Assembly (NCBI GenBank): GCA_965223255.1
Contig: CBDCWA010000004.1
Coordinates: 1,611,514-1,675,513 of the forward strand
Reading direction: 5' to 3'
Origin: Hyphomicrobiaceae bacterium
GTDB lineage: Bacteria > Pseudomonadota > Alphaproteobacteria > Rhizobiales > Hyphomicrobiaceae
DNA length: 64,000 bases
In this document: positions 4,788 through 20,766 of the stretch, in pieces
Numbering within the stretch: the stretch's first letter is position 1
How the letters are laid out: each line of letters opens with the position of its first letter
The notes under the pieces: generated by a model
Told to the model about the DNA's origin: nothing
Seen by the model: only the letters and a program-made list of their open reading frames with translations
Database searches by the model: none
Position numbers and translations under genes: made by a program

Positions 4788-5147
4788 AATCAGCTAACAG
4801 ATTTCCACCTTTCCCTACGACACGGATTATCAAGGAACGTGGCGCCAATGGATGTGGCGAACAAACGTAACTTGACCAGGTCTCTATTGTTCCGATCGGC
4901 GATCAATCTCGCGCGGCTTTTTTCTTGCACCATTGAAATGCCCCGCCGGCTTTGCGCAGAAATGCGGTCGGACACCGCCCCATATGACAGCGTTTGCCGC
5001 TGTATTGGCTGAACAATTCCGCCTGCAGACCGAGCGCGCTGGCTGCAAGTATATCGTAACGGCCGGTTCTTGGGTGGCACACATATTGCAACAAAATGGT
5101 GGTCTTAACGTAAACCGCTAAGTTAACTGAAAGCTTTGGAGGACGAG

Positions 5148-5618
5148 ATGGGAACATGGTTGATTGATCGCCGCTTGCTGGGGGTTGTCCTTGCCAGCCT
5201 GGTATTGTTGGTCGTGCCTGGTATGAGCGCGCAGGCTAAAAATGAGGCGATGGCCTCTTACCGGGCTTCTATTATGCAGAGTCTGAATGGGCACGTTGCG
5301 GCCATCGGCGCGATTGTCGATGAAAAGGTCGCCTTTAGGCATCACCTCCTTGATCACGCGGTCGCAATCGTTGGCACAAGCCGCGGTTTGCTGGAAATTT
5401 TCCCCGAGAAGGTAAAGAAAAAGACCGCTGAAAAATCCAAGGCGAATGGCAAGAAGTCAAAGTCTTCTCCTTCCTTCGAGGCTCTGGCTACGGAATTCAA
5501 TCTGGCGGCTGCACATTTGGTTCAGGTGATTCCATCGGGGAACAAGGCAGCCATCAAACAACACTTTGCAAAACTGAAAACAGTGTACGGAAAGCTTCAG
5601 GAGCAAACGAAGAAATAG
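5148..5618 (+). CDS. secreted helical protein (four-helix-bundle / cytochrome b562-like guess), Lys-rich insert
   Basis: GGAGGA lies 5-6 nt upstream of the ATG at 5148. The signal peptide ends in SAQA. Helical heptad-like content is present and there is no CxxCH. The function is not established. Confidence 0.55.
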   Translation: MGTWLIDRRLLGVVLASLVLLVVPGMSAQAKNEAMASYRASIMQSLNGHVAAIGAIVDEKVAFRHHLLDHAVAIVGTSRGLLEIFPEKVKKKTAEKSKANGKKSKSSPSFEALATEFNLAAAHLVQVIPSGNKAAIKQHFAKLKTVYGKLQEQTKK

Positions 5619-6305
5619 GTACCCGCCAAGAGCGATGCAAAGTAGTTTCAAAGCCGATCAGGCCAAGGGACCCTACCCTTGGCCTGCCAAAATGTCGGAG
5701 TAGATTTATTGTGGGTAGAGGAATCCGTGCCGGCGAAGCTGGTAAGAACGCGGGCTGCGACAAGCCTGCAATGGAGTTGAAGCAGCTGGACACAAAGCCA
5801 GTCAATTTATCGGATCAGGCGCAGTCGCAGATTAACTTTGTCCACTCTGACAAACAACAAACAAGTGGCACGGCGGACCAATGCGTGCCGTCGCATCAAC
5901 ACAAGCTGAGCATTTAATTCCCATGGTCAACGAGCGCTTTCGAAGGGCGCTTCCATTGTGTGGCGCAGGTGTCCGATTGCTTGATTGACCGGAGCCCCAT
6001 GCGTTCCATGGGTGTGATTCAACAGCTGACAACTAACATAGATAACATAGACGAATTTTTGCCTATTCGGCTCAAGTATCCGACATGCATGGGTTTTGCC
6101 AATTTGTCAGATGTAGGCCGCCCAACCTACGCATTGATAAATAATGTGAAAGTGCGGAGGTGGCCTGATATTTCCAAGTGCACCCAGACAAGATGGCAGC
6201 ATAGCTGCCACATCTGGCCGGTGTTGCTTGAGGCCGGAGTGGCTATTGTCTTGAATTTCCGGAAAAACCGAAGTTTTCCATTGCGAATCAATCAGTTGTA
6301 GCTTC

Positions 6306-6321
6306 TGGCACAGTCCTTGCA
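6306..6321 (+). promoter_or_regulatory. sigma-54 (-24/-12) promoter TGGCAC-AGTCC-TTGCA
   Basis: This is an exact match to the TGGCAC-N5-TTGCW consensus. It lies ~180 nt upstream of the Gly-Met-X gene and on the same strand. A sigma-54 activator is encoded in the same module. Confidence 0.8.
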
Positions 6322-6498
6322 AGCGGTTAATAGAACGTGATGCATTGGGAACGTTTTGTGAGGCCAGGACGCACAGCTGGGGGGTCTCATGTTCTGTAGT
6401 CAGTCAAGAGGCATCGGATTCGCCGCGGTTGTGAAGACGTGCCGCCAACCGAAGGAGCAGGATTAGCAATGGTAACGTTTCAAAAGGAGTTTGGTCGA

Positions 6499-7425
6499 AT
6501 GCGTGGCTACATGGCCGCGGCCGCGGTTATTGCAGCGGGCGTAATAACGGGTATGAGCAGCTCGGAAAGTACCGCGCAGGGCATGCGTGGCATGTACGGA
6601 ATGCCGGGTATGTACGGCATGGGCGGCATGCGCGGCATGCCTGGTATGGGCGGTATGTACGGCATGGGCGGCATGCGCGGCATGTACGGCATGGGTGGTA
6701 TGCGCGGCATGTACGGCATGGGCGGCGTGCGCGGCATGTACGGCATGGGTGGTATGCGAGGTCCAGCCGGCAGGTGGACTTGGGTGTGGGTGCCAGCTCC
6801 TACAAGCAGAATGAGAGGCATGTACGGTATGTACGGAATGCCGGGCATGTACGGCATGGGTGGCATGCGTGGTATGTACGGCATGTACGGAATGCCGGGT
6901 ATGTACGGCATGGGTGGCATGCGCGGTATGTACGGCATGGGCGGCATGCGCGGTATGTACGGTATGCGGGGCATGCCGGGCATGTACGGCATGGGCGGCA
7001 TGCGCGGTATGTACGGCATGGGCGGCATGCGCGGTATGTACGGTATGCGGGGCATGCCGGGCATGTATGGCATGTATGGAATGCCGGGCATGTACGGCAT
7101 GGGCGGCATGCGCGGTATGTATGGCATGGGCGGTATGCGCGGTATGTACGGTATGCGTGGCATGCCCGGTATGGGTGGCATGTACGGCATGTACGGAATG
7201 CCGGGCTTGTACGGCATGGGCGGCATGCGCGGCATGCGCGGTATGTACGGCATGGGCGGCATGGGCGGTATGTACGGCATGCGCGGAATGCCAGGTATGG
7301 GCGGCATGTATGGCATGCGCGGCATGCCGGGTATGGGCGGTATGCGTGGCATGCCCGGAACGCGAAGCTGGGCTCCTCCGCAACCACCGCAGACTCCGCC
7401 ACCGGCGCAGAAGAAGCCGAGCTAA
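6499..7425 (+). CDS. secreted hyper-methionine (Gly-Met-X)n repeat protein, collagen-like Gly periodicity
   Basis: The track ORF is 6439..7425. I prefer the ATG at 6499 because AAGGAG lies 9 nt upstream; ATG 6469 is an alternative. The signal peptide is MRGYMAAAAVIAAGVITGMSSSESTA/QG. After it come 20 and then 60 G-M-X triplets, followed by a Pro-rich tail. The gene shares strand and operon context with the downstream genes. Confidence 0.7.
   Translation: MRGYMAAAAVIAAGVITGMSSSESTAQGMRGMYGMPGMYGMGGMRGMPGMGGMYGMGGMRGMYGMGGMRGMYGMGGVRGMYGMGGMRGPAGRWTWVWVPAPTSRMRGMYGMYGMPGMYGMGGMRGMYGMYGMPGMYGMGGMRGMYGMGGMRGMYGMRGMPGMYGMGGMRGMYGMGGMRGMYGMRGMPGMYGMYGMPGMYGMGGMRGMYGMGGMRGMYGMRGMPGMGGMYGMYGMPGLYGMGGMRGMRGMYGMGGMGGMYGMRGMPGMGGMYGMRGMPGMGGMRGMPGTRSWAPPQPPQTPPPAQKKPS
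6580..6759 (+). repeat. coding tandem repeat block 1: 20 x 9-nt GGN-ATG-NNN triplet units
   Basis: Hand parse gives GMR GMY GMP GMY GMG GMR GMP GMG GMY GMG GMR GMY GMG GMR GMY GMG GVR GMY GMG GMR. Confidence 0.9.
6817..7356 (+). repeat. coding tandem repeat block 2: 60 x G-M-X units with a higher-order 9-triplet (81-nt) unit
   Basis: 59 of the 60 triplets have Met at position 2 (the exception is GLY). The unit GMG GMR GMY GMG GMR GMY GMR GMP GMY recurs at 6907, 6988 and, as a variant, 7096. Confidence 0.9.
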
Positions 7426-7629
7426 GAGGGCATGGATTTTATGTGATGACAATGTGGGTGCCGGTGGGCAAAGACAGTGCACGCGCACAATGCCCCACCG
7501 GCCTCCGCAAAAACAACCCATCGCATCGTTTCGCTCGTCAACTAACAGCAGTCAAAATCACTTATACCGTGAACCGTTGATTTGATTTTGGGTGCGGTGA
7601 GATTTTCAGAATCTGTGCGGGGGAGGTGA

Positions 7630-8220
7630 ATGTCAGACAGTACTGAGAGCTACAGCGAGGCTGAAGCGTCGTCTCCAATAGAAGAGGCGCGAGCGAAGCC
7701 TATGAAACGAGAAGCATTCAACCAAATTGCTCCGTTTCTTGTCGCTGTCGCAGTCACCGCAGGCATTATAATGGTCTCCGTGGGGGTATCGAAAAAGCAG
7801 CCGGAGCTCGAGCCAGGTCCAAGCAAAGACATCGGCCGACCTGCGGCTCCGCTGTCAAGCGCGAAAGTGCCCGCCGCAAAAGGGCCGGCCGCCACTGCAC
7901 CAAAAGATCCGCAAGTGAGAACGACACCACCAAAGGAGACGGCTTCCCGGCCCTCGAAAGTAGAACCAGTAAAATCCGAATCATCATCGACTGTTAAGAG
8001 TCTTTTTGTCGGCGGTGCAGCACCGAGTAGACGTCCCTCTGATGCTCCGTCGATCAAAGACCTTGCAAAGGACGCCGATTGGTATGCGCGTGCACTTACC
8101 GGCCTCGCAAAGCCCTACCCGCGCAGCTTCAAGTTTTTGGAAGACCAAGGTGCTTGGTATACGCCCTTCAACAAGCGCGGAATGACTGGCCCTTACGACA
8201 TTAGGAGTTGGCATGAATAA
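7630..8220 (+). CDS. single-pass membrane protein with Pro/Ala/Ser/Lys-rich linker and conserved C-terminal module (unassigned)
   Basis: GGGAGG sits upstream of the ATG. The protein has an acidic N-terminus, one TM helix (IAPFLVAVAVTAGIIMVSVGV), a low-complexity linker and a C-terminal ~70 aa paralogous to the C-terminus of the next gene. Confidence 0.7.
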   Translation: MSDSTESYSEAEASSPIEEARAKPMKREAFNQIAPFLVAVAVTAGIIMVSVGVSKKQPELEPGPSKDIGRPAAPLSSAKVPAAKGPAATAPKDPQVRTTPPKETASRPSKVEPVKSESSSTVKSLFVGGAAPSRRPSDAPSIKDLAKDADWYARALTGLAKPYPRSFKFLEDQGAWYTPFNKRGMTGPYDIRSWHE

Positions 8221-9046
8221 GAACACTGGGATGCAACAAATAGCACAGCCATTCACAAATCATGCGTGGCGACCAATGGGCGTCACTGCAATCAAATCCT
8301 TGATTCCAGAAGCGTCGCTCATAGCATCTCTATTGTGGGCAAGTCTGTTCATGATCGGCGTCGCCGACGCGCGCGCTGAAGGCGATATTGAGCAGGGCAA
8401 GAGAGTATTCAGGCTCTGCATCGCCTGCCATAAGATTGGGCCAGGGGCGAGAAACCTGAGCGGGCCAAAACTCAATGGCATTGTTGGCCGAAAGGCCGGC
8501 ACCGTTGAGGGGTTCAAGTATTCTCCCGCCAACAAGAAGGCTGGCGAACAGGGATGGATTTGGACCGAACAGGCATTGGATAAATATTTGGAGAACCCGC
8601 GCAAGGCGATGCCTGGCAATCGGATGGTGTTCATCGGGATAAAAAGCGCGAAGGATAGAAAGAATCTCATCGCTTATCTCAAGTCATTCAAGTCAAGTCA
8701 GCACCGCGGGACGACCAAGACCATGGACGCCGCATCAGCACCGGTCCAGCCGGGGGCTAAAACAAAGCGTTCGGCGAAGGCCGAGCGCGGGGGCAAATCC
8801 CAACCCAAACGGACGACGTCAGTCATATGGGTCGGTGGATCAACCCCGTCCAAACGGCCACCCGCCGCACCGCGCCTGAGAAGCTTCGAGAAGACGCCTG
8901 CCTGGTACCGCCGTGCTCTGGCAGGCCTGTCGAAGCCCTATCCGCCGAGCTTCCGGTTCCTCGAGGATCAAGGTGCTTGGTACACACCATTCAATAGCTC
9001 GGGCATGACAAGCCCTTACGATCTGCGCGCTTGGCATAAAAGTTAG
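8213..9046 (+). CDS. class I c-type cytochrome (c2-like) with N-terminal signal/anchor and the same C-terminal module
   Basis: An ATGAATAA overlap links it to the previous gene. It has a CIACH haem motif and a PGNRMVF distal Met region, typical of c2/c550 cytochromes. Its C-terminus is paralogous to 8002..8217. Confidence 0.8.
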   Translation: MNKNTGMQQIAQPFTNHAWRPMGVTAIKSLIPEASLIASLLWASLFMIGVADARAEGDIEQGKRVFRLCIACHKIGPGARNLSGPKLNGIVGRKAGTVEGFKYSPANKKAGEQGWIWTEQALDKYLENPRKAMPGNRMVFIGIKSAKDRKNLIAYLKSFKSSQHRGTTKTMDAASAPVQPGAKTKRSAKAERGGKSQPKRTTSVIWVGGSTPSKRPPAAPRLRSFEKTPAWYRRALAGLSKPYPPSFRFLEDQGAWYTPFNSSGMTSPYDLRAWHKS

Positions 9047-9116
9047 CTTCGCGCAGTGGGTGCCGACGGAGCCCCGGCGCGGTGTGAGAAACAGCATAAG
9101 AATATGAGATAAGAAG

Positions 9117-9977
9117 ATGATGCACAGAACGCTAACCTTGGCAGTGAGTTGCCTGTCCGTCGTTCTTGTCACAGGCAGCATTTATTCGTTTGCATGGTCA
9201 GAGAGTGGCACACGCAAGGGCGATTATGCTGCTGCGGTATGGAACAAACTTCATTTCTCACCAGCCATTGATCGCGCAAGAGATGAGCAGTGCCTTTCAT
9301 GCCATAGCGAGATCCTCAAGCAAAAAGTGCGCACCAAGTCTCCCGCCGGGATAAAGGCGAAAGATTCAATTGCTTGGTATCAGGCAATGGATACGTACAC
9401 AGGAGATCAAGAAACGTTTCATTGGCGGCATATTTCTTCGCCTTTTGCAAAGGCTGTCATGAAGCTGTCGTGCAATTTCTGTCACCGTGGACACGATCCG
9501 CGTGAAGAGGCGCCAGGCTCGAGTGCAACCGCACCGCAAATTGGCAAAGCGACTGGGTTTGCCTTGCGCAAGACGGTTGATCCTTCGCAAACGTGCCTCA
9601 AGTGCCATGGCAGCTTTCCCTATAAGATCATGCAATTGCCGGGACCTTGGCACGAAGTGCGACCGTTAATGGAGTCACCGGAAATAAAAAACGGCTGCCT
9701 AGGCGCTTGTCACAAGGTAGCATTCCGCACCAATCGCCATAACGTGACCTATCTCAATCGCGACAAGATAGAGGAATTGTCCAAGGACAACTCGGACACG
9801 TGCTTTGGCTGTCATGGCGGAAGGGCATGGTACCGGAATTCCTACCCTTATCCGCGAAATCCCTGGCCCGGCATGGACAAAGAGATTCCAAAGTGGGCCA
9901 AGGATAGGCCCACCCAATCCGAAGCGCGCTTTCGCATTGGCGACAAACAAGGCGCCGCGGCTGGCAAGACGAAATAG
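9117..9977 (+). CDS. multihaem c-type cytochrome (4 CxxCH + 1 CxxxCH)
   Basis: The motifs are CLSCH, CNFCH, CLKCH, CFGCH and the variant CLGACH. The N-terminal hydrophobic segment could be a signal peptide or an anchor. A NapC/TorC-like quinol-dehydrogenase role is only a guess. Confidence 0.8.
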   Translation: MMHRTLTLAVSCLSVVLVTGSIYSFAWSESGTRKGDYAAAVWNKLHFSPAIDRARDEQCLSCHSEILKQKVRTKSPAGIKAKDSIAWYQAMDTYTGDQETFHWRHISSPFAKAVMKLSCNFCHRGHDPREEAPGSSATAPQIGKATGFALRKTVDPSQTCLKCHGSFPYKIMQLPGPWHEVRPLMESPEIKNGCLGACHKVAFRTNRHNVTYLNRDKIEELSKDNSDTCFGCHGGRAWYRNSYPYPRNPWPGMDKEIPKWAKDRPTQSEARFRIGDKQGAAAGKTK

Positions 9978-10012
9978 CGGGCACGGCAGCAAAGTGTTGG
10001 AGGCAAAACCAT

Positions 10013-12547
10013 ATGAGTGTGAAGATTGACGTCCTCAGATCAGCTTTAAACCTGACGCGCCGCCGTTTCGTGCAACTGTCGGCGGCAAGTGCAGCCGCCG
10101 GTGCGGCAGGGCTTAAGCCGGAGCAGGCACAGGCGTTCGCCTATGAACCATATCCGACTGACGACGAGCTGACGACGATAGTAACAAGCTGCGCGCATAA
10201 TTGCGGATCGCGTCACGCACTCGTTGCACACAAGAAAGGTGATGTAATTGTCAGGCTGTCATCGGATGACGGACGCTATCAGAAGGATGGAGAATACGGC
10301 AAGGATACAGAGGACGAGCCGCAGGTGCGCGCCTGTCTGCGCGGACGGTCGTATCGTTCGCGGCTCTACTCGGCAGAGCGCCTGCTCCATCCCATGATTC
10401 GGGTCGGAGCGCGCGGTGAAGGGAAATTCAAACGCGCCTCCTGGGATACGGCGTTGGACTACATTGCCGAGCGCATAGTGAACATTAAGAATACCTATGG
10501 GCCAACTGCAATCCTGGACCAAAGCTATGCCGGCGCCTCATGGGGCGTCTTGCATCGCTCGGATCAGATCGAGGGGCTATTAGGGCGCTTTCTCGGCATT
10601 TTCGGTTGCCGCACGACGTCCTGGTCCGTGCCTTCGTATCAGGGAACGACTTTTTCGTCAGAAACGACCTTTGGCACGATTGAGGATGGAAATGAGGATG
10701 ATACGTTTGCCCACTCCAAGCTGATGATCATGTGGGGCTGGAATCCGGCCTACACATTTCATGGCGGCAATACATTCTACTATATGCGACTTGCAAAGCA
10801 GCGCGGATGCAAATTTGTCTTGGTGGACCCGCAATACACAGATTCAGCGGCCTCCTATGATGCCTGGTGGATTCCAATTCGGCCTAATACGGATGCGGCA
10901 ATGCTCGCGGCAATGGCCCACTATATCTTTGTCAACAAACTTCAAGATCAGAGCTTCATCAATCGCTTCTGCCTTGGCATGGACGCGGGCACAATGCCGG
11001 CATTCGCCACCGACCAGGAAAATTTCAGAGACTACATTCTTGGCAGGTATGACGGTCAACCTAAGTCTCCGGAATGGGCGCAAGAGATCTGTGGTGTAAA
11101 GGCCGATGACATCAAGAAGCTCGCGCGGATGTATGCGACGACAAAGCCAGCGGCATTGAAAGCAAGCTGGGCGCCAGGGCGATGCGCATACGGCGAACAG
11201 TATAGCAGGATGGCCGCGGCCCTTCAGGCAATGACCGGAAACATCGGTGTCTTGGGCGGCAGTGCTGAAGGCGTCGGCAAGGCCTGGAAAGCACAGGCTG
11301 CTGCGGGACCGGTAGATCAATACGCCAACATACATGCCGCTGCGATCAAGTCAGATAGATGGGCCGACTGCGTCCTTAATTACCCAAATGTGCGCCGCGA
11401 AGATGTCGGCTTGTGGCCGAAGTCGGGCGCCATGGATGGGGTAATACCGAATATTCGAGCGATTTGGTGGCAAGCGTCCGACTGGTTTAACCAGCTCCCC
11501 AACATCAACAAACAAATAGAAGCGATCCAAAAGCTTGATCTCGTCGTCTGCCAAGATTCGACCATTACGCCATCTGGGATATGGGCCGATGTGCTTCTGC
11601 CGGTTGCTACCCACTTCGAGCGCCACGATGTGGCCCTGCCTTGGTACAAGGGCCACTACTATATTCATAGGCCGAAGGTGATCGAGCCGCTTGGAGAAAG
11701 CAAGACCGACTGGCAGATTTTCACCGAGCTCGCGTTCCGACTCGGATTTGGCAAGACCATGAATCCACTTGCCTCCCGCGACTATTTCCACAACGATGAT
11801 GCGACCGACGAGGCGTATCTCAGGGATTGGTGGGAAAAGCGCGTCATGGGGTATCAAGGAGTTACGATGCCCTGGGATGAGTTCAAGAAACGCGGCATCT
11901 ACAAATTCCGACTGGACAAGCCCCATGTTGCCTTTCGCGAGCAGATTGAGGAGGGCAAACCATTCAAGACCACCTCCGGCAAGATCGAGATATTCTCTAT
12001 CAAACTATCGAACATTAAGGACTTTCGCCAAACGCAGTTTGGTTATCCTATCCCCGCAATCCCAAAATGGATTGAGCCATGGGAAGGCAGGCGCGATCCA
12101 AAGGTGCGCCAATATCCATTCCAGATGATCACGCCACACCCACGTTGGCGAACGCACTCAATATTCAACAACATCGGGTGGCTTCGGGAGACCTATGAGC
12201 AGGAAGTGACAATCAATGCGGACGATGCCGAGAAGCTCGGCATTAAGACAGGGGACAACGTCTACATCTGGAATGAGCGAGGCGCGACGGTGACACCAGC
12301 CTATGTGACACAACGACTGATGCCGGGCGTCGTTGTGCTTTACGAAGGCGCTTGGATGGATCGGGACACAAAGGGTATCGACCGGTCCGGCAATCCGGAT
12401 TTCCTGACCCTGGATGCGCCCAGCCCTGCAGGGGCATTTGCATACAATACGCTGTTGGTAAACATGCAGAAGACCGATCTGCCGCATCGACCCGGCTGGG
12501 ACAAGCTCGCAACGGCACGCAGCCACGTCTTCCGGCGTGACAATTGA
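10013..12547 (+). CDS. Tat-exported molybdopterin oxidoreductase catalytic subunit, DMSO reductase family (DmsA-like)
   Basis: GGAGG RBS. The twin-arginine motif is TRRRFVQLSAASAAAGA. The N-terminal FS0-type motif is C-AHN-C-GSR-H ... QVRACLRGRS. As far as I recall E. coli DmsA, the protein is collinear with it (e.g. RVGARGEGKFKRASW). Length is 844 aa. Confidence 0.85.
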   Translation: MSVKIDVLRSALNLTRRRFVQLSAASAAAGAAGLKPEQAQAFAYEPYPTDDELTTIVTSCAHNCGSRHALVAHKKGDVIVRLSSDDGRYQKDGEYGKDTEDEPQVRACLRGRSYRSRLYSAERLLHPMIRVGARGEGKFKRASWDTALDYIAERIVNIKNTYGPTAILDQSYAGASWGVLHRSDQIEGLLGRFLGIFGCRTTSWSVPSYQGTTFSSETTFGTIEDGNEDDTFAHSKLMIMWGWNPAYTFHGGNTFYYMRLAKQRGCKFVLVDPQYTDSAASYDAWWIPIRPNTDAAMLAAMAHYIFVNKLQDQSFINRFCLGMDAGTMPAFATDQENFRDYILGRYDGQPKSPEWAQEICGVKADDIKKLARMYATTKPAALKASWAPGRCAYGEQYSRMAAALQAMTGNIGVLGGSAEGVGKAWKAQAAAGPVDQYANIHAAAIKSDRWADCVLNYPNVRREDVGLWPKSGAMDGVIPNIRAIWWQASDWFNQLPNINKQIEAIQKLDLVVCQDSTITPSGIWADVLLPVATHFERHDVALPWYKGHYYIHRPKVIEPLGESKTDWQIFTELAFRLGFGKTMNPLASRDYFHNDDATDEAYLRDWWEKRVMGYQGVTMPWDEFKKRGIYKFRLDKPHVAFREQIEEGKPFKTTSGKIEIFSIKLSNIKDFRQTQFGYPIPAIPKWIEPWEGRRDPKVRQYPFQMITPHPRWRTHSIFNNIGWLRETYEQEVTINADDAEKLGIKTGDNVYIWNERGATVTPAYVTQRLMPGVVVLYEGAWMDRDTKGIDRSGNPDFLTLDAPSPAGAFAYNTLLVNMQKTDLPHRPGWDKLATARSHVFRRDN

Positions 12548-13233
12548 TGATTGGGGACACAGATATGGCAAAGGCGCCGATTGACAAGAAGAAGATAAAG
12601 AACGCGGTAAAACGCAAGAAACAAGACGTTTACAAGCCAGTGGTTCCCCACCAACAGCTCGGGTTTATCCATAACAATGTCGATTGTATCGGGTGCAGGG
12701 CTTGCGAGATTGCTTGTAAGGATAAGAATGGGTTAGCACCCGGACCAAGATTCCGCAGAGTACAATATATCGAGGGTGGCACATATCCCGAGGTGTTTGC
12801 ATACAAGGTAAATATGTCGTGCAATCACTGCGCTGAACCTGCCTGCCTTCCCGCCTGTCCCACCGGCGCGATCTACAAACGGAAAAAGGATGGTATTGTC
12901 GACATTGACTCGACGTTGTGCATCGGATGCCGGCGCTGCGAGGCCACATGCCCCTACGGCGCACCGCAATACATCCCTGATCAAAATATCGTTTCTAAGT
13001 GTAATATGTGCGTGGATGAGATTGATGCCGGTCGTAAGCCCTATTGCGTGATGGCCTGCATGATGCGCGTGCTCGATATTGGTCCGATAGACAAATTGCG
13101 TGATGGGACTTGGGACACTAAAGCCAAGGCAAAGCAGGAGAAAGTTGTACGTCAGGTGCAGAATATGGCGGATCCGGAGCTAACCAATCCATCGATCGTA
13201 TTCGTCGCGCATAGCAAGGGCAAAGTGAAATAG
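12544..13233 (+). CDS. 4x[4Fe-4S] ferredoxin-type electron-transfer subunit (DmsB-like)
   Basis: Four Cys clusters are present (CIGCRACEIAC, CNHCAEPACLPACP, CIGCRRCEATCP, CNMCVDE...CVMAC). The start overlaps the stop of the A subunit (TTG 12544 / ATG 12547). ATG 12565 with a GGGGA RBS is an alternative start. Confidence 0.85.
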   Translation: MMIGDTDMAKAPIDKKKIKNAVKRKKQDVYKPVVPHQQLGFIHNNVDCIGCRACEIACKDKNGLAPGPRFRRVQYIEGGTYPEVFAYKVNMSCNHCAEPACLPACPTGAIYKRKKDGIVDIDSTLCIGCRRCEATCPYGAPQYIPDQNIVSKCNMCVDEIDAGRKPYCVMACMMRVLDIGPIDKLRDGTWDTKAKAKQEKVVRQVQNMADPELTNPSIVFVAHSKGKVK

Positions 13234-13302
13234 GCGGTATGCTGCCGTGTTCGTGAACCACCCTGCGCCTTTTCCAATGCGCACTCACCTAGAGCGTTTC
13301 AA

Positions 13303-14130
13303 GTGCACAAACCTATCAGAGGTGCCCACCATGCTGGCCCTAGCCAGCATGCAGGGCGGGAGAATTCATTCGTGCAAGACCATGGACAAAGCGAAGCTGA
13401 ACTTCTTGCTGCTTTCAGAGAGTCGGTCGATGATGACCTGAAGTTGATTGCAGCACTGCACGATCGCGAGATCGATGCACCTGCGATCGCGCAGCTCAAA
13501 CAACTGAGGTTTCCCAGTGGCCTCGGTTTTAATCTGTCAAAGTCGGCAGCGAAACAAGCCCAACGACAAATGATCGATGCTCTTGCGGATCTGCCGGATG
13601 TACCCGATCAAGCGCTTCTCGATGAACTCGCCGTCGATTTTGCAGCAATCTATCTGACCTATCGCTACCGGGCCGCGCCAACGGAATCCGTGTGGCTCGA
13701 TAAGGACCATCTCGAGCGCCAGCAACCTATGTTTCAGACCCGAGCCGCCTACCGCCGAAGAGGTCTGAAGGTCGTCAACTGGAACGTGAGGTCTGAAGAT
13801 CACCTGGTCACTCAACTGCTTTTTGTGGCGCATTTGATTGGCGAATGTCGCGACGAAGTGGCGCTAGCGGATGCTGCAGCGTTCCTTGACCAGCACTTGC
13901 TCCGTTGGATTGACATCTTCGCCTTGAGTGTAGCGCAACGTTGCAGCGCTCGTTTTTATAGCGCCCTCGGCTCGCTGACAGCTGCCTATTTGGACGAGCT
14001 GCGCGATGTTCTCGCAGAGATCCTGGATGAACCGCGACCCCAAATCGTAACAGCCGATCAGATTCTGCAGCCACCCGACGAAGCCGAGCAGCACACTCCA
14101 ATCGCACCGGCCGTTGGTCCAAGCTGGTGA
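13303..14130 (+). CDS. TorD/DmsD-family redox enzyme maturation chaperone
   Basis: The EDHL-type motif (SEDHLVTQLLFVAHL) and helical layout are typical of the TorD family. It sits immediately after the A and B subunits. The GTG start is uncertain. Confidence 0.65.
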   Translation: MHKPIRGAHHAGPSQHAGRENSFVQDHGQSEAELLAAFRESVDDDLKLIAALHDREIDAPAIAQLKQLRFPSGLGFNLSKSAAKQAQRQMIDALADLPDVPDQALLDELAVDFAAIYLTYRYRAAPTESVWLDKDHLERQQPMFQTRAAYRRRGLKVVNWNVRSEDHLVTQLLFVAHLIGECRDEVALADAAAFLDQHLLRWIDIFALSVAQRCSARFYSALGSLTAAYLDELRDVLAEILDEPRPQIVTADQILQPPDEAEQHTPIAPAVGPSW

Positions 14131-14151
14131 TCAACCAGCGAATGGGTGCCG

Positions 14152-15534
14152 TTAGTCGCTGCGTTCACTAACGCTAAGTCCATGCTTCTTGAGCAACCTG
14201 TACGTGTTGCGCTCGCTTATTCCCAATACTTCAGCAATCCGCGAGCGATGTCCGCCGTATTTTACGACCAATCTAGCCAGGTAATCTCGCCGGATTTCCT
14301 CTAACGTTGGCTCGTGATCAAACATGAACGCCGCCGTTTCACAACGAGACGACTGAGCGCTGGGTGGAGCACTCAACCCCAGGTGCCGTGCTCGGATAGT
14401 AACGTCGTCGCCAGATACCAGGATTGCCCGCTCTATGACGTTTCTAAGCTCGCGAACATTGCCTGGCCATGAGTATGCGGTAAGCACCTCAATGGCATCC
14501 TTGCTCAATATCTTCTGCCGGGCGCGCTGAAAAGATCTGGTATCCAAAAACAGCTCTGACAGCACCGCGATGTCCTCGCGCCGCTGTCGCAGCGGTGGTA
14601 CACTGATCACAACTGTAGCCAAGCGATAGTAAAGGTCAGATCGAAATCGTCCCTCGTCGATGGATGCTATAAGGTCACGATTAGTTGCAGCGACGATGCG
14701 CGCGTCACTGATTATCTTCTGGGTGCCGCCGACGCGCCGAAATTCTCCGGTCTCAAGCACGCGCAGTAGTTTTGCCTGCATCGACGCAGGCAATTCGCCG
14801 ATTTCGTCAAGGAACAGTGTTCCGCCCTCGGCAATTTCGATCAAGCCCTGCTTGCGCCGGTCCGCTCCTGTAAATGCCCCTTTCTCGTGACCAAACAACT
14901 CCGATTCGAACAGCGTCTCTTGTAATGTCGTTGCATCCACAGGCACAAAGTTGGAATCCGCACGATCGCTCAGCTGGTGAATGGCTTTTGCTACAAGCTC
15001 CTTGCCGACGCCACTTTCGCCCTCGATTAGAACCGTTGAATCGCTTGGTGCGACCAACTCAATAAGATGTGCCATTTCCTCAAAAGCATTGCTCCGTCCA
15101 ACCATAATCTTCTTGATGTTGGGATTTAGTTGTTCTCGGCAATACTGGTAGCTGCGCCTCAAGGAGCTGTTTTCCAATGCTCGGCCAATAGCAAACTCCA
15201 GTTCGGACGGATTGATCGGTTTCGTCAGATAGTCAACCGCACCAGACCGGATAGCTTCGACTGCATGCCGAATGCTTCCGTACGCCGTCAGAACGAGCAC
15301 AGGGCATTGAGCTGAAAGTTCCGGCAAACACTGGATACCATCGATGTCGGGAAGTCTGATATCGAGGAGAGCAAGAGCGGGATCATGAGTCTCCAGCGTC
15401 ACCTTGGCTTCCTCCCATGAATAGACGCCAGTTGGCTGATAGCCCATCGCCCGCAGTTGTTCGATCAGAAAATGATTAAGTGCCTTGTCGTCCTCTATGA
15501 CAAGAAGATGCTTACCTTTCTTTCTTTGCGTCAT
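14152..15534 (-). CDS. sigma-54-dependent response regulator (NtrC family enhancer-binding protein)
   Basis: It has a receiver domain (LDIRLPDIDG), an AAA+ Walker A (GESGVGKE), the GAFTGA sigma-54 contact loop and a C-terminal Fis-type HTH. Confidence 0.9.
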   Translation of the reverse strand: MTQRKKGKHLLVIEDDKALNHFLIEQLRAMGYQPTGVYSWEEAKVTLETHDPALALLDIRLPDIDGIQCLPELSAQCPVLVLTAYGSIRHAVEAIRSGAVDYLTKPINPSELEFAIGRALENSSLRRSYQYCREQLNPNIKKIMVGRSNAFEEMAHLIELVAPSDSTVLIEGESGVGKELVAKAIHQLSDRADSNFVPVDATTLQETLFESELFGHEKGAFTGADRRKQGLIEIAEGGTLFLDEIGELPASMQAKLLRVLETGEFRRVGGTQKIISDARIVAATNRDLIASIDEGRFRSDLYYRLATVVISVPPLRQRREDIAVLSELFLDTRSFQRARQKILSKDAIEVLTAYSWPGNVRELRNVIERAILVSGDDVTIRARHLGLSAPPSAQSSRCETAAFMFDHEPTLEEIRRDYLARLVVKYGGHRSRIAEVLGISERNTYRLLKKHGLSVSERSD

Positions 15535-17435
15535 GATAGTTCTTTCGCTACTTCTGCAGAAGGCAATGTGACAACGAATCTAGTCCCCTCACCAACCACG
15601 CTCGTCACATCTAACCTGCCGCCGCTTCGTTTGACTATTTCTTGGCATATTGAAAGCCCAAGCCCTGTTCCGTGAACGCCGTCGGCACGTTTACTCCAGA
15701 AGGGATCGAATATTTTGGCGAGATCGCTCTTCTTGATCCCCACGCCAGTGTCCTCAAAGACCAGCTCGACCACATCTTCGCAGACTGAGCCCGAAACCAG
15801 CAGGCGCCCGCCATCAGGCATGGCATGCAGAGCGTTCTGTGCGATGTTTAGCACCATCATTCTCATCTCGCTGTCGGAGCCGATTGATCTGAGTTCACTC
15901 TCAAGATCCATCGATATGTCGACCTCTGACTTCAGTGCCTCAGCGTTGAGTAGGGAGAGAACCTCGAACACGACGTTGTTGAGATTTACAAGTTCGCGGT
16001 GCTCGCTTGCTGGTGCGCTAAGCTTCAAAAGACGCGACGTAACTTCTATGCAGCGCGTTATCTGATCTTCGATAATGTCAAGATACTTGCTTGCCTTCTC
16101 GTCCCGACCCTCCCGTAGAGCTCTTTTCGCTGAGTCGAAGCCCAAAAGTATGGACGCAAGAGGGTTGTGAATCTCGTGTGCAACACCCGCGGCCAGGAAG
16201 CCAATTTCCGACAGCCGCTGCTCTTGCGATAGCCGCACGTCCTTGCTCAGGTCTCTAATGACCTCCACAACGAATTTTTTTTGCGTGTCGTCAATAGTGA
16301 TTTCAAGCAGCGCTGCTGAGACCTCGACCGGGATTTCTTTCTCATCGGCGCTCACATGAGAATGCCGACAAGTCAAGACCTGCCCTCCTTTCTGCAGTTC
16401 ATGCAGCGGACAGCTGACCAAGCTCGCTGGGCAAGGCGATTCACGAGAATGGCTGGACCAATAGCAGGGTCGCTGTACCACCTCAGACCGCGCGCGATGC
16501 TGTTGTTCGCAGAATGCGCGGTTAGCCTTGACGACCTGATAGTTCATGTCGATCACGCGCACTCCATCGGGCATTATGTCGATCAGGTCCTGCAAATACC
16601 GCTCTCTGGTCTCTATATTGTGTACAGCTTGAGCGATACGAGCGGACATGTCGTTAAAGGCACGTCCAAGCCGCCCAATCTCATCGGAGCTTTTTAGCGG
16701 CACACGGTGACCCAGTTGGCCCAGCGACATCTTATCCGCTGCCTCGGTCAGTCCTTTCACAGGTGCGAGCACGAACCAGTTAAGCAGAAATCCGATGCCA
16801 CCAATGGTAGTCAGCACGACTGCTATTCCGGCACCACTCAGCATCAATACTGCAAACATTGTGTCGCGTCTGATGTTCGTTGCGTCATAGTCAACGACGA
16901 GAATTCCGTTTATTGGGTGGGTATCAATCTGGCCATGGCATTTAGTGCATGGGCCGCGGTTGCGGACCGGGTTTATGCTGCGCAGAATGTCACCAGCAAC
17001 GGCGTCCGCAACGAAGGCCGAACGGGGCCCGTGCCCTTTTATTGTTGCCTTGCAGTCTGGGCACAACTCACCTGCTTCGAGATCAAAACGTCGGCCAAGC
17101 TGTATCTTGTTGCTCGCAAATCTGACTTCACCATTCGGCGCAAGAATCATGACACCGGAAATATTCTCCTGTTCACCCAATCGTTCGACCATTTTCCTCA
17201 GGCCAACGATGTCACGATTGAGCATCGCATTCTCAAGCCCCAGCTGCAGCAGGCGGTTGACCTCCGTGGATGCTGCGCTGCGTTCCCTCAGGATTTGATC
17301 ACGATAGGAGAGAATGACCAACGCAAGGAAACAGATCGATGCAAACGTTAGGCTTGCGACAAGGATCAGGGTTATTTTCCGCCTTAGGCTTGCAGCAGAC
17401 CACCTGGCTAGGTCATTCCATAACTGTCCCATCAT
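15531..17435 (-). CDS. sensor histidine kinase: periplasmic Cys/haem-motif domain, HAMP, PAS, HisKA, HATPase
   Basis: Two TM helices flank a ~150-aa loop containing CPDCK and CTKCH. It also has a HAMP domain, a Cys-rich PAS-like domain, the H-box GVAHEIHNPL, and G-boxes DTGVGI and GTGLGLS. There are 4-nt overlaps with both neighbouring genes. Confidence 0.9.
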   Translation of the reverse strand: MMGQLWNDLARWSAASLRRKITLILVASLTFASICFLALVILSYRDQILRERSAASTEVNRLLQLGLENAMLNRDIVGLRKMVERLGEQENISGVMILAPNGEVRFASNKIQLGRRFDLEAGELCPDCKATIKGHGPRSAFVADAVAGDILRSINPVRNRGPCTKCHGQIDTHPINGILVVDYDATNIRRDTMFAVLMLSGAGIAVVLTTIGGIGFLLNWFVLAPVKGLTEAADKMSLGQLGHRVPLKSSDEIGRLGRAFNDMSARIAQAVHNIETRERYLQDLIDIMPDGVRVIDMNYQVVKANRAFCEQQHRARSEVVQRPCYWSSHSRESPCPASLVSCPLHELQKGGQVLTCRHSHVSADEKEIPVEVSAALLEITIDDTQKKFVVEVIRDLSKDVRLSQEQRLSEIGFLAAGVAHEIHNPLASILLGFDSAKRALREGRDEKASKYLDIIEDQITRCIEVTSRLLKLSAPASEHRELVNLNNVVFEVLSLLNAEALKSEVDISMDLESELRSIGSDSEMRMMVLNIAQNALHAMPDGGRLLVSGSVCEDVVELVFEDTGVGIKKSDLAKIFDPFWSKRADGVHGTGLGLSICQEIVKRSGGRLDVTSVVGEGTRFVVTLPSAEVAKELS

Positions 17436-17908
17436 TGCGATGCCAGCCGAATGATAAAGCTCTCAGTAGGAACAAGATCCGTATCAATCCGGCAAAGCCT
17501 TTCGGTTTGGTCAGCAAGATCATCCTGGAAGACGGTGATCGGAACGACGACCGGCACCAGCCATTCCCGCGCAGCAAATGCCTTAAGCCAGTCCCGCCGC
17601 TCCTCAGAGGCCTTTGTCGCGAGAATGGATTCCGCGTTATGCACAACGAGCCCGCCACGATTCGATTTCTTTTCGATGTACGCGGTCAGAGCCGATAGTG
17701 GAACCTGGCCGGCCTCCCATCCCAGGGGGAGAAGTTTTTCCGCCCGAAAGTCTATGAAGGTGAAGTCAAGAGCATTCGTCATGGCGCGTATTAACTCTGG
17801 CCGGTACTCGGGAAAAACGACGAAGAAACCTCCACGTCCAGCAGCCTGGGCAATCATCTCGGCAACCGGCCTTATCCAAGGTAATAGAGGCTCTCGAGAC
17901 TGCATCAT
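17432..17908 (-). CDS. hypothetical protein co-transcribed with the kinase
   Basis: The track ORF starts at 17962. I prefer ATG 17908 because it forms an ATGA start/stop overlap with the upstream ferredoxin gene. The stop overlaps the kinase start. I recognised no motif. Confidence 0.55.
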   Translation of the reverse strand: MMQSREPLLPWIRPVAEMIAQAAGRGGFFVVFPEYRPELIRAMTNALDFTFIDFRAEKLLPLGWEAGQVPLSALTAYIEKKSNRGGLVVHNAESILATKASEERRDWLKAFAAREWLVPVVVPITVFQDDLADQTERLCRIDTDLVPTESFIIRLASQ

Positions 17909-18993
17909 CGCAACACTTGAAACAGTTTGTCGTAATGCTGCGTCTTCAGGCAGATCCGACATCGCAACTCGGCCGATCCCTGGCTCTCAGGCATCAAAAA
18001 CACAGTTCCGCACGAGCGGCATTGCGCAGAATCAAGTTGAATGGATGTCGGGTCGCCGCGCTGCCAGGACTTGACGGCGACTGCATCAGTATCACAAACG
18101 TCAGCGCACAGCCTGCAGCCGGTGCAATGTGACGGAGCGATCTTGTAGGCGGGCCGGCCCGCGTGATCAGTCACAAGTGTGATTGCATGAGTTGGGCATA
18201 TGCGAATACAGGCATTGCACCCGACGCAGTTCGCAGTATCAATTTCGGGAAGATAGGGGTTCAAAGGCATCCCGCTTTCGCCGGCTGGAAGTCGCTCCGC
18301 TGCCGGAACCTGACGTTGTGTCTTCAAGTTGGAATCCACGTCCACCAACCTGCTAACGGCCACAAAAAAACCGCGCCGGGATGCACGCATCGTTGTTGAA
18401 CGTATAGTATGCCATTCGCCAGGTGTGTACTCAGTGATGCTGAATTCATCCATGCCTCGGTCCGCCCAGAGACGTTGGAGGTTGATAACCGCTTGATCAA
18501 ACTGATGACTCAAACCACGCTCGCAGCTCAGGCATGCTTCGCGGCTCACGATCAGCTGTCGCAAACCTTGTGCATATAGTTGAGCCAGTTCATCTATTCC
18601 GATCGAATTCAGGCAAGGTCGTACACCAGGTCCACCTTCTTCGACGGCGACGGAACAGGCAAACAGTCCAATCTTGTCATCGTCATAAGATCTCGCAGCG
18701 TTGGCCAGTGGCAATTCAATCGCAGTCTGCGGGCAGACCGGCACACAGATGCCACATCCATCGCAAGCTTGTTCGTCAAATCCGAGAGCATCCTCCTCTA
18801 AGACCCACGCGGCACGTGGACAAGCATCAACGCAGTCTTGGCAACTAGCGTTGGACACGATCGCATGAACGCAACGATCAGCATCAATAACTGGAAGGTC
18901 TGCGGGCAGATGCGACAGCTTATCGCTTCGCGGAAGGGCAAAGCTGCGTCCTGGCAACCCAGACTCAGTCGTGTCCGAACGATTCTTCGACAT
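17905..18993 (-). CDS. polyferredoxin-like protein (two 2x[4Fe-4S] dicluster domains + C-terminal CxxC...CxxC ribbon)
   Basis: Motifs are CQDCVDACP, CDGCGICVPVCP, CVGCNACIRICP, CTGCRLCADVCD, and CRSCG...CRIC. Start is either ATG 18993 (MSKNRS) or the upstream start at 19083. Confidence 0.75.
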   Translation of the reverse strand: MSKNRSDTTESGLPGRSFALPRSDKLSHLPADLPVIDADRCVHAIVSNASCQDCVDACPRAAWVLEEDALGFDEQACDGCGICVPVCPQTAIELPLANAARSYDDDKIGLFACSVAVEEGGPGVRPCLNSIGIDELAQLYAQGLRQLIVSREACLSCERGLSHQFDQAVINLQRLWADRGMDEFSITEYTPGEWHTIRSTTMRASRRGFFVAVSRLVDVDSNLKTQRQVPAAERLPAGESGMPLNPYLPEIDTANCVGCNACIRICPTHAITLVTDHAGRPAYKIAPSHCTGCRLCADVCDTDAVAVKSWQRGDPTSIQLDSAQCRSCGTVFLMPESQGSAELRCRICLKTQHYDKLFQVLR

Positions 18994-19148
18994 CACGTTA
19001 TCGCTTCCGGCGCCCGGTTGCCCTCGCTCGCGCTCGCTGCGCGCACCTACTCGCGTGGCAGCCGACCCGGCGGGCACGGGCACTTCCGACGATTATGAAA
19101 GACAGCTATTCCAACCCGAGAAACAGCCGCCACGACACGCTGTCGTGA

Positions 19149-19164
19149 TGCAACTCCTGTGCCA
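19149..19164 (-). promoter_or_regulatory. sigma-54 (-24/-12) promoter TGGCAC-AGGAG-TTGCA (minus strand)
   Basis: This is an exact consensus match on the minus strand. It lies 66-156 nt upstream of the polyferredoxin start candidates. Confidence 0.8.
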
Positions 19165-20049
19165 TCACCAATACTCTTTGGCGTCCTGTGTCGACGGCTC
19201 GGCAGATAGCCTTTCAGCGCCGTGACTTGGGCAGGAGGAGCACTGAGGCTGACAAATTGTCATGGGTCGGAGGCGCTGAATATGCCAGTCTGTCAGGTCT
19301 GCGCCAAGCATGTTTGATGCTAGTCTCGGATCGACCATATCGAGTGTCTGGAGTCTCTCCGAAAGAGGGGTCCAATAGATCGGTCTTAGCTATGCCCGAC
19401 AACTGGAGGGCAAATATTTGGGGGCAGACCAACCATCGGATATGCGACGACATTTTGCCGAGTTAGCGAAAGCTTCGCAGCAAGAACGCACGAGCTTCTG
19501 TGCTGCCCACTGAGAGCGGACATCACCCGGCGTGGGGCTGACATCGCGGTGGGGGCAAACGAGAAAGTCACACTGAAGCATTGGCTTACAGCCATGGATG
19601 GATGAGCTGGACCGATCGGTACAATTGTAGCTAATGTCCCACTTGGCGTTCAGGACCAGTTCCATCACCAGCAAGTGCCGGCAGTTAGTCTCGATTTGAT
19701 GAGAATTCCTCGTCAATATCGATGAGCCGGCGCCAGAGCATACAAGCGCGGTGCACGAACACGACGCCAGATCAGACACTTGCACTTCCTTTCCATACGG
19801 CCCCGGCACGCTTCTTTTGATCGAGTCGGGAATCAAATGCCATACGCATCGTAGGCTTTGCTCATGGAGCGCGGGCAGTCATGCCAAGTATTTGGCAAGA
19901 TTTGACGCACATCAAAAACTACGCGCAAGACTTGCATGGAACTTGCATGGAAAGAGCAAATTGCCTGCAGAAGTGGAGAGAGCCGTTGGTCCATGATGGT
20001 GATGTGCAGGCCCGTCGCAAAGGGACGGCTCATTTTAGGAGGAAGTAAG

Positions 20050-20346
20050 ATGGCTGCAATGTTCGCGCGAATCCGTACGCCTGTCGCGGGGAAGCACGTC
20101 GACGGTTATAAGTTCGCTCAGGAGCGGGCGAAGGCGATGAAGGATGTTTTGGGAATTGACCAAGAGGTCTATGTGCGCCTGGGTGGTCCGGTCGGCCAGG
20201 TGATTGCGGTCTCGAAGCACAACAGCATCGCCGAGATCGAGGAAGTGAAGAAGAAAGTGATTAAGGCAGACGGCGAGGGAAAGTTACCGACAGCGCCGGC
20301 GGGTACCTTCTCTGAGATCGTCGATCACGTCTGGCTGCAGGAATAA
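20050..20346 (+). CDS. small hypothetical protein (98 aa)
   Basis: AGGAGG lies 7 nt upstream of the ATG at 20050, which is internal to the track ORF 19936..20346. I recognised no motif. Confidence 0.55.
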   Translation: MAAMFARIRTPVAGKHVDGYKFAQERAKAMKDVLGIDQEVYVRLGGPVGQVIAVSKHNSIAEIEEVKKKVIKADGEGKLPTAPAGTFSEIVDHVWLQE

Positions 20347-20766
20347 GGCGGATCCGCAGTGGTCTGCGCGGCCCTACGTGGAATTCAAGAGGCATGTTAG
20401 GAGTGATCCCACCGTTATGGAGAGCGGGATCGGCGGTTGATATGCAGTGTGATCATCGGCTGAAGTGACCAATACTTTGGGGCTAGAAGCTGGTCGAAGC
20501 ACACGCGCACCGCGCAATACGCAAATGGCACAAACGTGCTATTCATAAAAACTGCCTTCGACATAAGACTTGTGCCCATGTGATCCGATTTGCGGCAGCG
20601 CTGCTTCCAGCGAAGGCTCCCGCAGTTCCCGGGGGCTCCGACATCACCTAACGCTGATCCGATAAGCCGTTCAGGGCAAGCAACGACATCTTGCTTGGCA
20701 GCGCCGTGACAGGATCACCTGAGACATAGCGCCTGGCTAGAGGGGTAAGCCGAGGGGTCGTTACGC

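Follow-up and report, generated by a model that had tools for sequence, protein, structure and literature searches.

What might a secreted protein built of dozens of Gly-Met-X triplets be for, when its gene lies upstream of those for a molybdoenzyme of the dimethyl sulfoxide (DMSO) reductase family? The question is raised by a gene cluster in a stretch of 64,000 nucleotides (nt) from a Hyphomicrobiaceae bacterium, hereafter the window (the whole of the DNA analysed). An initial annotation had proposed that the repeat protein is a renewable sink of Met and Tyr residues, oxidised in the cell envelope and re-reduced by a DmsAB-type enzyme to which c-type cytochromes carry the electrons. The results below are consistent with a narrower form of that idea, a periplasmic cycle between Met and Met sulfoxide (Met-SO) in which the DmsAB-type enzyme would re-reduce the repeat protein as an oxidant buffer; substrate and inducer are both presumed, and the reading is offered tentatively, as quite possible if short of probable. 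The cluster comprises the following features (window coordinates; evidence in brackets).

6097-6109, palindrome, no strand assigned: candidate activator-binding site TGCCAATTTGTCA, ~200 nt upstream of the -24 element
6306-6321, plus strand: sigma-54 promoter of the structural operon (perfect TGGCAC-N5-TTGCA)
6469-7425, plus strand: secreted (Gly-Met-X)78 protein (Sec signal, repeat blocks; alternative start ATG 6499)
7630-8220, plus strand: transmembrane-anchored linker protein with a module of ~70 amino acids (aa) at its C-terminal end (module alignment; no Pfam or NCBIfam match)
8213-9046, plus strand: class-I cytochrome c (haem motif CIACH) fused to the same ~70-aa module (PF00034, module alignment)
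9117-9977, plus strand: pentahaem-type cytochrome c with four CXXCH motifs and one CX3CH (haem motifs; conserved in 77 loci)
10013-12547, plus strand: molybdopterin subunit of the DmsA/YnfE family, exported by twin-arginine translocation (Tat) (TIGR02166, 615 bits; variant C-x3-C-x3-H of the motif for iron-sulfur cluster FS0)
12544-13233, plus strand: DmsB-like four-cluster ferredoxin subunit (TIGR02951, 197 bits; 47% identity to E. coli DmsB)
13303-14130, plus strand: maturation chaperone of the TorD/DmsD family (PF02613, E = 5.8e-19; NF003442)
14152-15534, minus strand: NtrC-type sigma-54 activator with receiver, AAA+ and DNA-binding domains (PF00158, E = 2.9e-67; PF00072)
15531-17435, minus strand: sensor histidine kinase with a periplasmic CXXCH domain, HAMP, PAS, HisKA and HATPase (profile searches)
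17432-17908, minus strand: 158-aa protein without family match (reading frame open to 17962)
17905-18993, minus strand: cytoplasmic polyferredoxin with three CxxCxxCxxxC motifs (alternative start GTG 19083)
19149-19164, minus strand: sigma-54 promoter of the regulatory operon (perfect TGGCAC-N5-TTGCA)
19250-19262, palindrome, no strand assigned: perfect palindrome TGACAATTTGTCA, ~86 nt upstream of the -24 element

Relatives of the cluster were sought by scanning one genome per species, which yielded 583 related stretches as candidate loci; the best 80 of these, with a DmsA 74–86% identical to that of the window, made up the locus set. Components were counted by tblastn and clustering of open reading frames (ORFs) with the window included (81 in total), and the counts are lower bounds because many loci end at contig edges. 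The 80 loci belong to species-level genomes of Alpha-, Beta- and Gammaproteobacteria, with Hyphomicrobiaceae, Methyloligellaceae, Competibacter, Thiothrix, Thiodiazotropha, Sedimenticola, Beggiatoaceae, Chromatiaceae and Rhodocyclaceae among the carriers. DmsA was counted in 81 loci, the pentahaem cytochrome in 77, DmsB in 76 and TorD in 73, and the core order pentahaem cytochrome c-DmsA-DmsB-TorD was seen in nearly all loci; the polyferredoxin was counted in 51, the kinase in 45, the activator in 44 and the ~70-aa module in 43. When the count of the repeat gene was restricted to the 48 informative loci (at least 2 kb of upstream DNA), a Gly/Met-rich ORF lay directly upstream on the operon strand in 43, and on the opposite strand in two more. 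The common full order runs from a small secreted module protein through the repeat protein (sometimes two), pentahaem cytochrome, DmsA, DmsB, TorD and polyferredoxin to the kinase and activator. The initial annotation had asked whether Gly-Met-X proteins and the module (recognisable by WY..PF..PYD) accompany the DmsA orthologues of this clade; they do, across three proteobacterial classes, and this synteny is taken as support for the proposed Met/Met-SO cycle.

All eleven genes first called in the window were recovered by the ORF map and profile searches, as were the two perfect sigma-54 promoters and the 4-nt overlaps of the reverse operon, whose three junctions are ATGA overlaps if the gene for the 158-aa protein starts at ATG 17908. 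This protein gave no usable match in Pfam, NCBIfam or PDB sequence searches, and was found by ORF clustering in just 14 loci. A membrane anchor of the DmsC/NrfD type, already reported missing, was found neither in the window cluster nor in any ORF family conserved across the 80 loci, and profile searches of the window cluster detected neither the MsrP nor the MsrQ family. The two convergent operons described at the outset are present in the window but are not the general layout: in most other loci the polyferredoxin gene directly follows TorD, and many other genomes carry polyferredoxin, kinase and activator genes after TorD on the same strand. The convergent arrangement is a lineage variant, as are the Tyr/Arg/Pro-rich third repeat positions and the cytochrome-c-module and anchor-module genes of the window lineage.

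The mature product of the repeat gene is 281 aa long and contains 78 G-M-X triplets, with 79 Met (28% of residues) and 102 Gly; X is Y, R, G or P, and the repeats are encoded by a tandem array of 26 copies of a 27-nt unit. It has a single aromatic island, RWTWVWVP, and its C-terminal tail is W-A-P-P. Its orthologues, of ~80–130 G-M-X units, all begin with a Sec signal peptide and have short conserved aromatic islands between the repeat blocks (GWVWVPS, GYFKITPQGQIFFYP, GWVCTQWS). A W-x-P-P tail closes most of the 15 orthologues inspected, three of them ending instead in GW(R/K) and two lacking the motif. A homology search with the repeat protein returned 11 weak matches, its low complexity hampering its use as a query; judged by the features they share, the repeat proteins are nonetheless a real protein family. 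Sulfur-globule proteins were ruled out, many of the host taxa storing no sulfur. Across the orthologues Gly and Met are fixed while the third position varies (S, G, Q, N, E, Y, R, P), which argues for selection on Met itself. Most orthologues are of the form (GMS/GMG)n with almost no Tyr, so that the Tyr sink first envisaged would be specific to the window lineage and is not supported. Tandem pairs of repeat genes occur in loci L002, L003, L004, L008, L012 and L018, and further Gly/Met-repeat ORFs lie 7–12 kb from the main cluster in two loci (L007:22011-22544, minus strand; L029:16914-18083, plus strand).

The regularity of the repeat admits readings in which Met oxidation plays no part. Gly at every third residue, sustained for hundreds of residues, explains why the protein matches collagen profiles (Pfam Collagen, E = 3.6e-21; NCBIfam, 75 against a cut-off of 325, with no trimerisation or flanking domain), and a structural or chaperone-like hydrophobic polymer of polyproline II (PPII) or collagen-like form, to be compared with the (GGM)n tails of GroEL or the Met bristles of SRP54, might tether or organise the reductase complex, or else bind some hydrophobic ligand. 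PPII helices are reported for the Gly-Met tails of GroEL (PMC12571646), and the conserved aromatic islands and W-x-P-P tail suggest specific contacts. Such a scaffold is nevertheless very doubtful, since an AF2 model of the repeat protein shows disorder and no fold (predicted local distance difference test score, pLDDT, 44), no trimerisation domain is present, Pro and charged residues are few in most orthologues, and it is Met, not the third position, that is held fixed. (G-M-X)n is at the same time an unbroken M-x-x-M array, and M-x-x-M is the 'Mets' motif that binds Cu(I) in Ctr1, CopA/CopB, PcoC and CueO. The repeat protein could then be a periplasmic sponge for soft metals (Cu(I), Ag(I), Hg) with an indirect link to the molybdoenzyme, but His and Asp, the usual partners at bacterial Met-rich Cu sites, are absent from the repeat proteins, the cluster has no conserved copper oxidase, Cus or Cop gene (an RND pump is found in five loci only), and control by a haem-c kinase and sigma-54 is unlike the CusRS and CueR types; a metal sponge is thus judged highly improbable.

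The best-scoring family for the catalytic subunit was that of the DMSO and selenate reductases, the 615 bits obtained with TIGR02166 lying below the cut-off of 777.7; models of ArrA, TtrA, the NarG type and type-II DMSO reductases scored far below DmsA/YnfE. Perchlorate/chlorate reductase (Pcr/Clr), Arr/Arx, Ttr and Psr were ruled out by these family scores, and for Pcr/Clr there was in addition no cld gene in the ORF families that the 80 loci conserve. The window DmsA is 35% identical to E. coli DmsA over its full length. Aligned with DorA, it keeps the Ser147 that ligates Mo, and also the SYGW sulfoxide motif's 'SY' (the equivalent of DorA Tyr114); neither the Ser nor the 'SY' varies among 81 family members, in keeping with the predicted assignment as a DmsA-type S-oxide reductase. 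The FS0 motif reads C-x3-C-x3-H in the window (10184-10210, DmsA residues 58–68) and in all 80 of 80 orthologues, where E. coli has CTVNCGSRC; this exchange of the third Cys for His implies that the cluster beside the Mo cofactor is ligated by His or changed in some other way. A C-terminal extension of DmsA is conserved in the clade, and the DmsB score is slightly below the TIGR02951 cut-off of 214.1. Because of its TIGR02166 score, the retained Ser and 'SY', the FS0 His, the C-terminal extension and the lack of DmsC, the clade is classed by sequence as a distinct group within the Ser-ligated S-/N-oxide reductases, other than plain DmsABC.

Work on relatives of the enzyme bears on its substrate. 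DorA reduces protein-bound Met-SO with a preference for the G-M(O) context, and E. coli DmsA and DorA have opposite stereospecificities (PMC7402097); Met-SO reduction and induction by hypochlorous acid (HOCl) have been described for E. coli DmsABC (PMC12096835). The precedent of Met cycling by MrpX and YedY in Azospira (PMC4436054) had been correctly given in the initial annotation. Enzyme and repeat protein share the periplasm, to judge by their signals: the repeat proteins carry Sec signals and DmsA carries a Tat signal (RRRF in the window, RRxF in the orthologues).

The pentahaem cytochrome of the window has CLGACH (CX3CH) as its fourth haem site where its orthologues have CXXCH; 70 of the 77 orthologous cytochromes have five CXXCH motifs, and three longer forms have six. 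Weak matches to the c7, c3 and paired-CXXCH families were returned by Pfam and NCBIfam, with no match to the Cytochrom_NNT (NapC/NirT) profile and none to PDB sequences, and several orthologues carry a cleavable signal peptide. That c-type cytochromes serve as the electron carriers, as first supposed, gains from the fusion of this cytochrome to the ~70-aa module in one protein (P0193, 54% identical to the window cytochrome), but loses from the composition of the cluster, which encodes no quinol dehydrogenase.

This module is a secreted unit with the consensus AGxxPxxRPxxAP...WYxxALxGxxxPYPxSLxFLEDQGAWYTPFxxPGMTGPYDIRxWH. No relative was found in Pfam, NCBIfam or PDB sequence searches, and the AF2 model (34 sequences; pLDDT 59) was too low in confidence for a fold search. 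Against 1.84 billion representatives the module profile matched 266 proteins, mostly of 95–150 aa. Its fusions are varied: a membrane anchor and linker precede it in the window and in P0002, P0004, P0013, P0016 and P0021; it is joined to at least two unrelated types of class-I cytochrome c (window and P0149; P0033 and P0123); it occurs as a tandem pair in P0052; and in P0138 it stands with GWVCT(R/Q)W islands but without repeats. These fusions suggest that the module is a docking domain joining electron-transfer proteins, membrane and repeat protein. With the (GMX)n repeat protein, it is one of two undescribed protein families in the cluster. Full-text literature searches (Met-rich with DMSO reductase, molybdopterin or the host taxa, and Gly-Met repeats by themselves) found no description of the cluster, in line with the earlier impression that the gene combination was undescribed, and papers on carrier organisms label these genes simply dmsAB.

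Published expression data exist for one group of carriers. In Candidatus Thiodiazotropha endoloripes (Petersen et al.), a 'DMSO reductase' was among the highest-expressed genes in 5/5 transcriptomes and 6/6 proteomes, together with aerobic oxidases, which the authors found puzzling (PMC6872982). Its neighbourhood was given as an AtoC-type regulator and a sensor kinase (both on the minus strand), a hypothetical protein, 'SRP54' (336 aa), a hypothetical protein of 251 aa, DmsA (2565 nt), a 4Fe-4S protein, TorD, a ferredoxin of 354 aa and a hypothetical protein of 531 aa (PMC6872982), an order that matches the Thiodiazotropha loci L025 and L075. From its position and size, the 'SRP54' (peg.2062) is most likely a misannotated Met-rich repeat gene, and public annotations of the repeat-protein family are probably unreliable. 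The 531-aa protein (peg.2068) corresponds in size to a thioredoxin-like (AhpC/TSA, Redoxin) and NHL-repeat protein of ~530 aa that follows the polyferredoxin in 10 loci (e.g. L063:6462-8054), and which may be a thiol-based partner, for instance for periplasmic Msr enzymes. During upwelling, dmsB and dmsD were among the top transcripts of Ca. Thiodiazotropha (PMC12172469).

This last observation brings in the alternative that DmsAB reduces a small molecule (DMSO, trimethylamine N-oxide (TMAO), free Met-SO, iodate, chlorate, bromate or selenate) for respiration or detoxification, the repeat protein being a co-expressed shield against reactive by-products such as hypohalous acids, or else a product trap. 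The enzyme family spans DMSO and selenate reductases, expression is higher during upwelling, and in published work the gene has been taken for an electron sink under anaerobic conditions. Where a soluble AB enzyme receives its electrons from c-type cytochromes, the substrate is typically a high-potential oxyanion. Iodate reduction by Shewanella reportedly needs DmsA-type enzymes (PMC9048795), DmsA paralogues of Salmonella have been reported with an unexpected substrate, sulfate (PMC13524816), and MrpX itself accompanies an HOCl-producing reductase pathway. What such an enzyme leaves unexplained is the ~80-Met shield present in ~94% of loci, as the products of DMSO and TMAO reduction are harmless; the conserved ORF families in the 80-locus set include no chlorite dismutase, peroxidase or other by-product enzyme, and the module fusions tie the islands of the repeat protein to electron-transfer proteins. 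A small-molecule substrate is therefore considered unlikely.

The Met/Met-SO cycle draws its support from the synteny, the common regulatory sites, the shared compartment, the active-site residues, the module fusions, the MrpX precedent, the MsrA and thioredoxin-like genes nearby and the expression in Ca. Thiodiazotropha endoloripes; several points weigh against it. Three informative loci have no Met-rich gene nearby. In L023, L032 and L076 (Ca. Albibeggiatoa/Thiotrichaceae) the clade DmsA stands alone, genes for a cytochrome, DmsB, TorD or a Met-rich protein all being absent within 10 kb; the genes beside it are unrelated (Kdo transferase, MlaD, P-type ATPase, TauE), and TGNCA-N3-TGNCA palindromes lie 210–340 nt upstream of it. 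The FS0 Cys-to-His change sets the enzyme apart from plain DmsA, and the cluster encodes no quinol dehydrogenase. Class-I cytochrome c donors are more positive than the couple expected for Met-SO/Met, which resembles that of DMSO and dimethyl sulfide, and electron flow to Met-SO would for that reason be uphill unless pulled. The triplet periodicity, aromatic islands and W-x-P-P tail exceed what a simple sacrificial sink would need. The upwelling-season peak of dmsB and dmsD suggests respiratory use; it fits a respiratory role no worse than a stress role. As a whole, the interpretation first put forward keeps its gene calls, its precedent, the conserved co-occurrence and the active-site residues, and loses the Tyr sink.

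How the cluster might be controlled is indicated by its promoters. About 0.03 exact matches to TGGCAC-N5-TTGCA are expected per 64 kb, and such sites stand before both operons; sigma-54-like -24/-12 sites were found upstream of the operon in 35/44 related loci, a 4.4-fold enrichment. Sigma-70-like sites were rarer than chance in the cluster region (2 against 11 expected), scans of this region for terminators and sigma-70-like sites gave nothing informative, and no Rfam RNA family matched in window 3500-20500. Across the loci, the palindromic motif TGNCA-N3-TGNCA (typically TGACAATTTGTCA) was matched 95 times where ~1.3 matches were expected; most copies form pairs at a distance of ~65 bp and lie just upstream of the first gene. 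Since the palindromes at 6097-6109 and 19250-19262 precede both operon promoters of the window, the NtrC-type activator is likely to bind this motif, and probably regulates its own operon. The periplasmic haem motif of the kinase is CTKCH in the window, and CXXCH is conserved in its family of 45 members; the periplasmic domain matched Cache and Tll0287 Pfam models weakly (E 0.05–0.15). With a -24/-12 promoter, a receiver-AAA+ activator, a kinase and an upstream site, the cluster fits a sigma-54/NtrC two-component regulon as predicted from its sequence.

Three further features lie upstream of the structural operon; the second is a perfect sigma-54 promoter additional to the two reported at first.

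4080-4787, plus strand: MsrA, a peptide Met-S-sulfoxide reductase with signal or transmembrane anchor (PF01625, E = 1.7e-58; hydrophobic N-terminus)
5075-5090, plus strand: third perfect sigma-54 promoter TGGCACACATATTGCA (motif scan)
5136-5618, plus strand: secreted, Cys-less four-helix protein resembling cytochrome c'/b562 (PF01322, E = 6.2e-11)

Homologues of the cytochrome-c'-like protein occupy the same position in L001 and L002, in the latter just downstream of TGGCAC-N5-TTGC, and the protein at 5136-5618 probably belongs to the same sigma-54 regulon in the window lineage. Neither the third promoter (5075) nor msrA is preceded by a convincing copy of the palindrome; the palindromes beside msrA in L001 belong to a divergent regulatory operon. 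An msrA gene lies within 10 kb in L001, L018, L031 and L071 as well (five loci with the window), and MsrA is an associated neighbour outside the core. DmsA-type enzymes and MsrA are reported to have opposite stereospecificities, so that MsrA could act as a complement to the reductase. Just beyond the other end of the cluster are an OmpW porin (20831-21538) and, at 21897-25144 on the minus strand, a TauD-family dioxygenase with two luciferase-like monooxygenases of the organosulfonate/sulfur-scavenging type; these neighbours are not conserved with the cluster.

The proposed Met/Met-SO cycle would work as follows. The haem-c sensor kinase would detect an oxidant or redox shift in the envelope and phosphorylate the NtrC-type activator, which would bind TGNCA-N3-TGNCA and fire the sigma-54 promoters in front of its own operon and the structural one. 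As their sequences show, the disordered (G-M-X)n polymer, with ~80 exposed Met residues, leaves by the Sec route and the DmsAB-type molybdoenzyme by Tat with the help of the TorD-like chaperone; the cytoplasmic polyferredoxin may, at a guess, assist in maturation. Hypohalous acids, chloramines, peroxide or peroxynitrite would turn the thioethers into Met-SO, and DmsA would return Met-SO to Met with electrons passed from the pentahaem cytochrome c through DmsB. The ~70-aa module, to judge by its fusions, would dock the parts and hold them together, and the anchored MsrA would handle the other sulfoxide diastereomer. An extension of this scheme, speculative and quite unlikely, makes the polymer a rechargeable thioether/sulfoxide 'battery' with its own Mo reductase, cytochrome wire and docking module, which would both quench envelope oxidants and, should external acceptors fail, serve as an internal sink for electrons; the triplet repeat, islands and W-x-P-P tail would then allow processive docking on the enzyme, and the users would be bacteria at oxic-anoxic interfaces, including sulfur-oxidising symbionts, Competibacter and Hyphomicrobiaceae.

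Should the Met/Met-SO cycle prove correct, periplasmic Met redox cycling would have been invented a second time, on the basis of DmsAB and with an unrelated architecture, and a physiological protein substrate could be assigned to a large, uncharacterised and highly conserved group of 'DMSO reductases', present in no fewer than 80 species-level genomes at identities of at least 74%. Two protein families, that of the (GMX)n repeat proteins and their islands and that of the docking module (266 cluster representatives), would be newly defined, as would a sigma-54 regulon together with its upstream site and its haem-c sensor. The high in-host expression of an 'anaerobic DMSO reductase' beside aerobic oxidases in lucinid clam symbionts could also be read anew. 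These genes are currently annotated as DMSO reductase, hypothetical, collagen-like or SRP54, and reconstructions of DMSO respiration in the carriers may therefore be wrong.

Several known systems resemble parts of the cluster. The repeat protein shares its Gly tripeptide periodicity with the (GGM)4M tail of GroEL (which also shares Gly and Met) and with the collagen-like Scl proteins, but the GroEL tail has 13 residues and is cytoplasmic, and Scl proteins are rich in Pro and charge and bear trimerisation and anchor domains. The extracellular DMSO/iodate reductase DmsEFAB of Shewanella is likewise a DmsAB without DmsC wired through multihaem c-type cytochromes; it differs in its decahaem DmsE and outer-membrane porin DmsF, no such porin being encoded in the cluster, and it has no Met-rich protein, module or sigma-54 control. 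Rhodobacter DorCDA and E. coli TorCAD are periplasmic Ser-ligated S-/N-oxide reductases, also fed by a pentahaem c-type cytochrome; DorA and TorA, however, have neither FS0 nor an iron-sulfur (FeS) subunit, and DorC and TorC are membrane quinol dehydrogenases of the NapC/NirT type, whereas the cluster cytochrome has no such Pfam match. DmsABC of E. coli and H. influenzae is homologous (DmsA 35%, DmsB 47%) and shares the Tat signal, Ser Mo-ligand and TorD/DmsD-type chaperone, but has the quinol-oxidising anchor DmsC in place of the pentahaem cytochrome c, a Cys as third FS0 ligand where the cluster clade has His and a C-terminal extension, and FNR/ModE instead of sigma-54 control. The cluster is assigned to none of DmsEFAB, DorCDA and DmsABC. 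Closest in its presumed logic is MrpX-YedYZ (MsrPQ) of Azospira suillum PS (PMC4436054), in which a secreted Met-rich protein is encoded beside a periplasmic molybdoenzyme capable of sulfoxide reduction, and sacrificial Met oxidation followed by enzymatic regeneration has been proposed. MrpX is small, with 20% Met, 44% charged residues and no triplet repeat, as against ~80–130 G-M-X units in the cluster protein; its enzyme consists of MsrP, of the sulfite-oxidase family, and the haem-b protein MsrQ instead of a bis-molybdopterin guanine dinucleotide DmsA, an FeS DmsB and a pentahaem cytochrome c; and its regulator is SigF/NrsF where the cluster has a haem-c kinase, an NtrC-type activator and sigma-54. 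As none of the components is related in sequence, the cluster is to be seen as an analogue and not a homologue, and the proposed Met/Met-SO cycle would work like MrpX-MsrPQ without belonging to that system.

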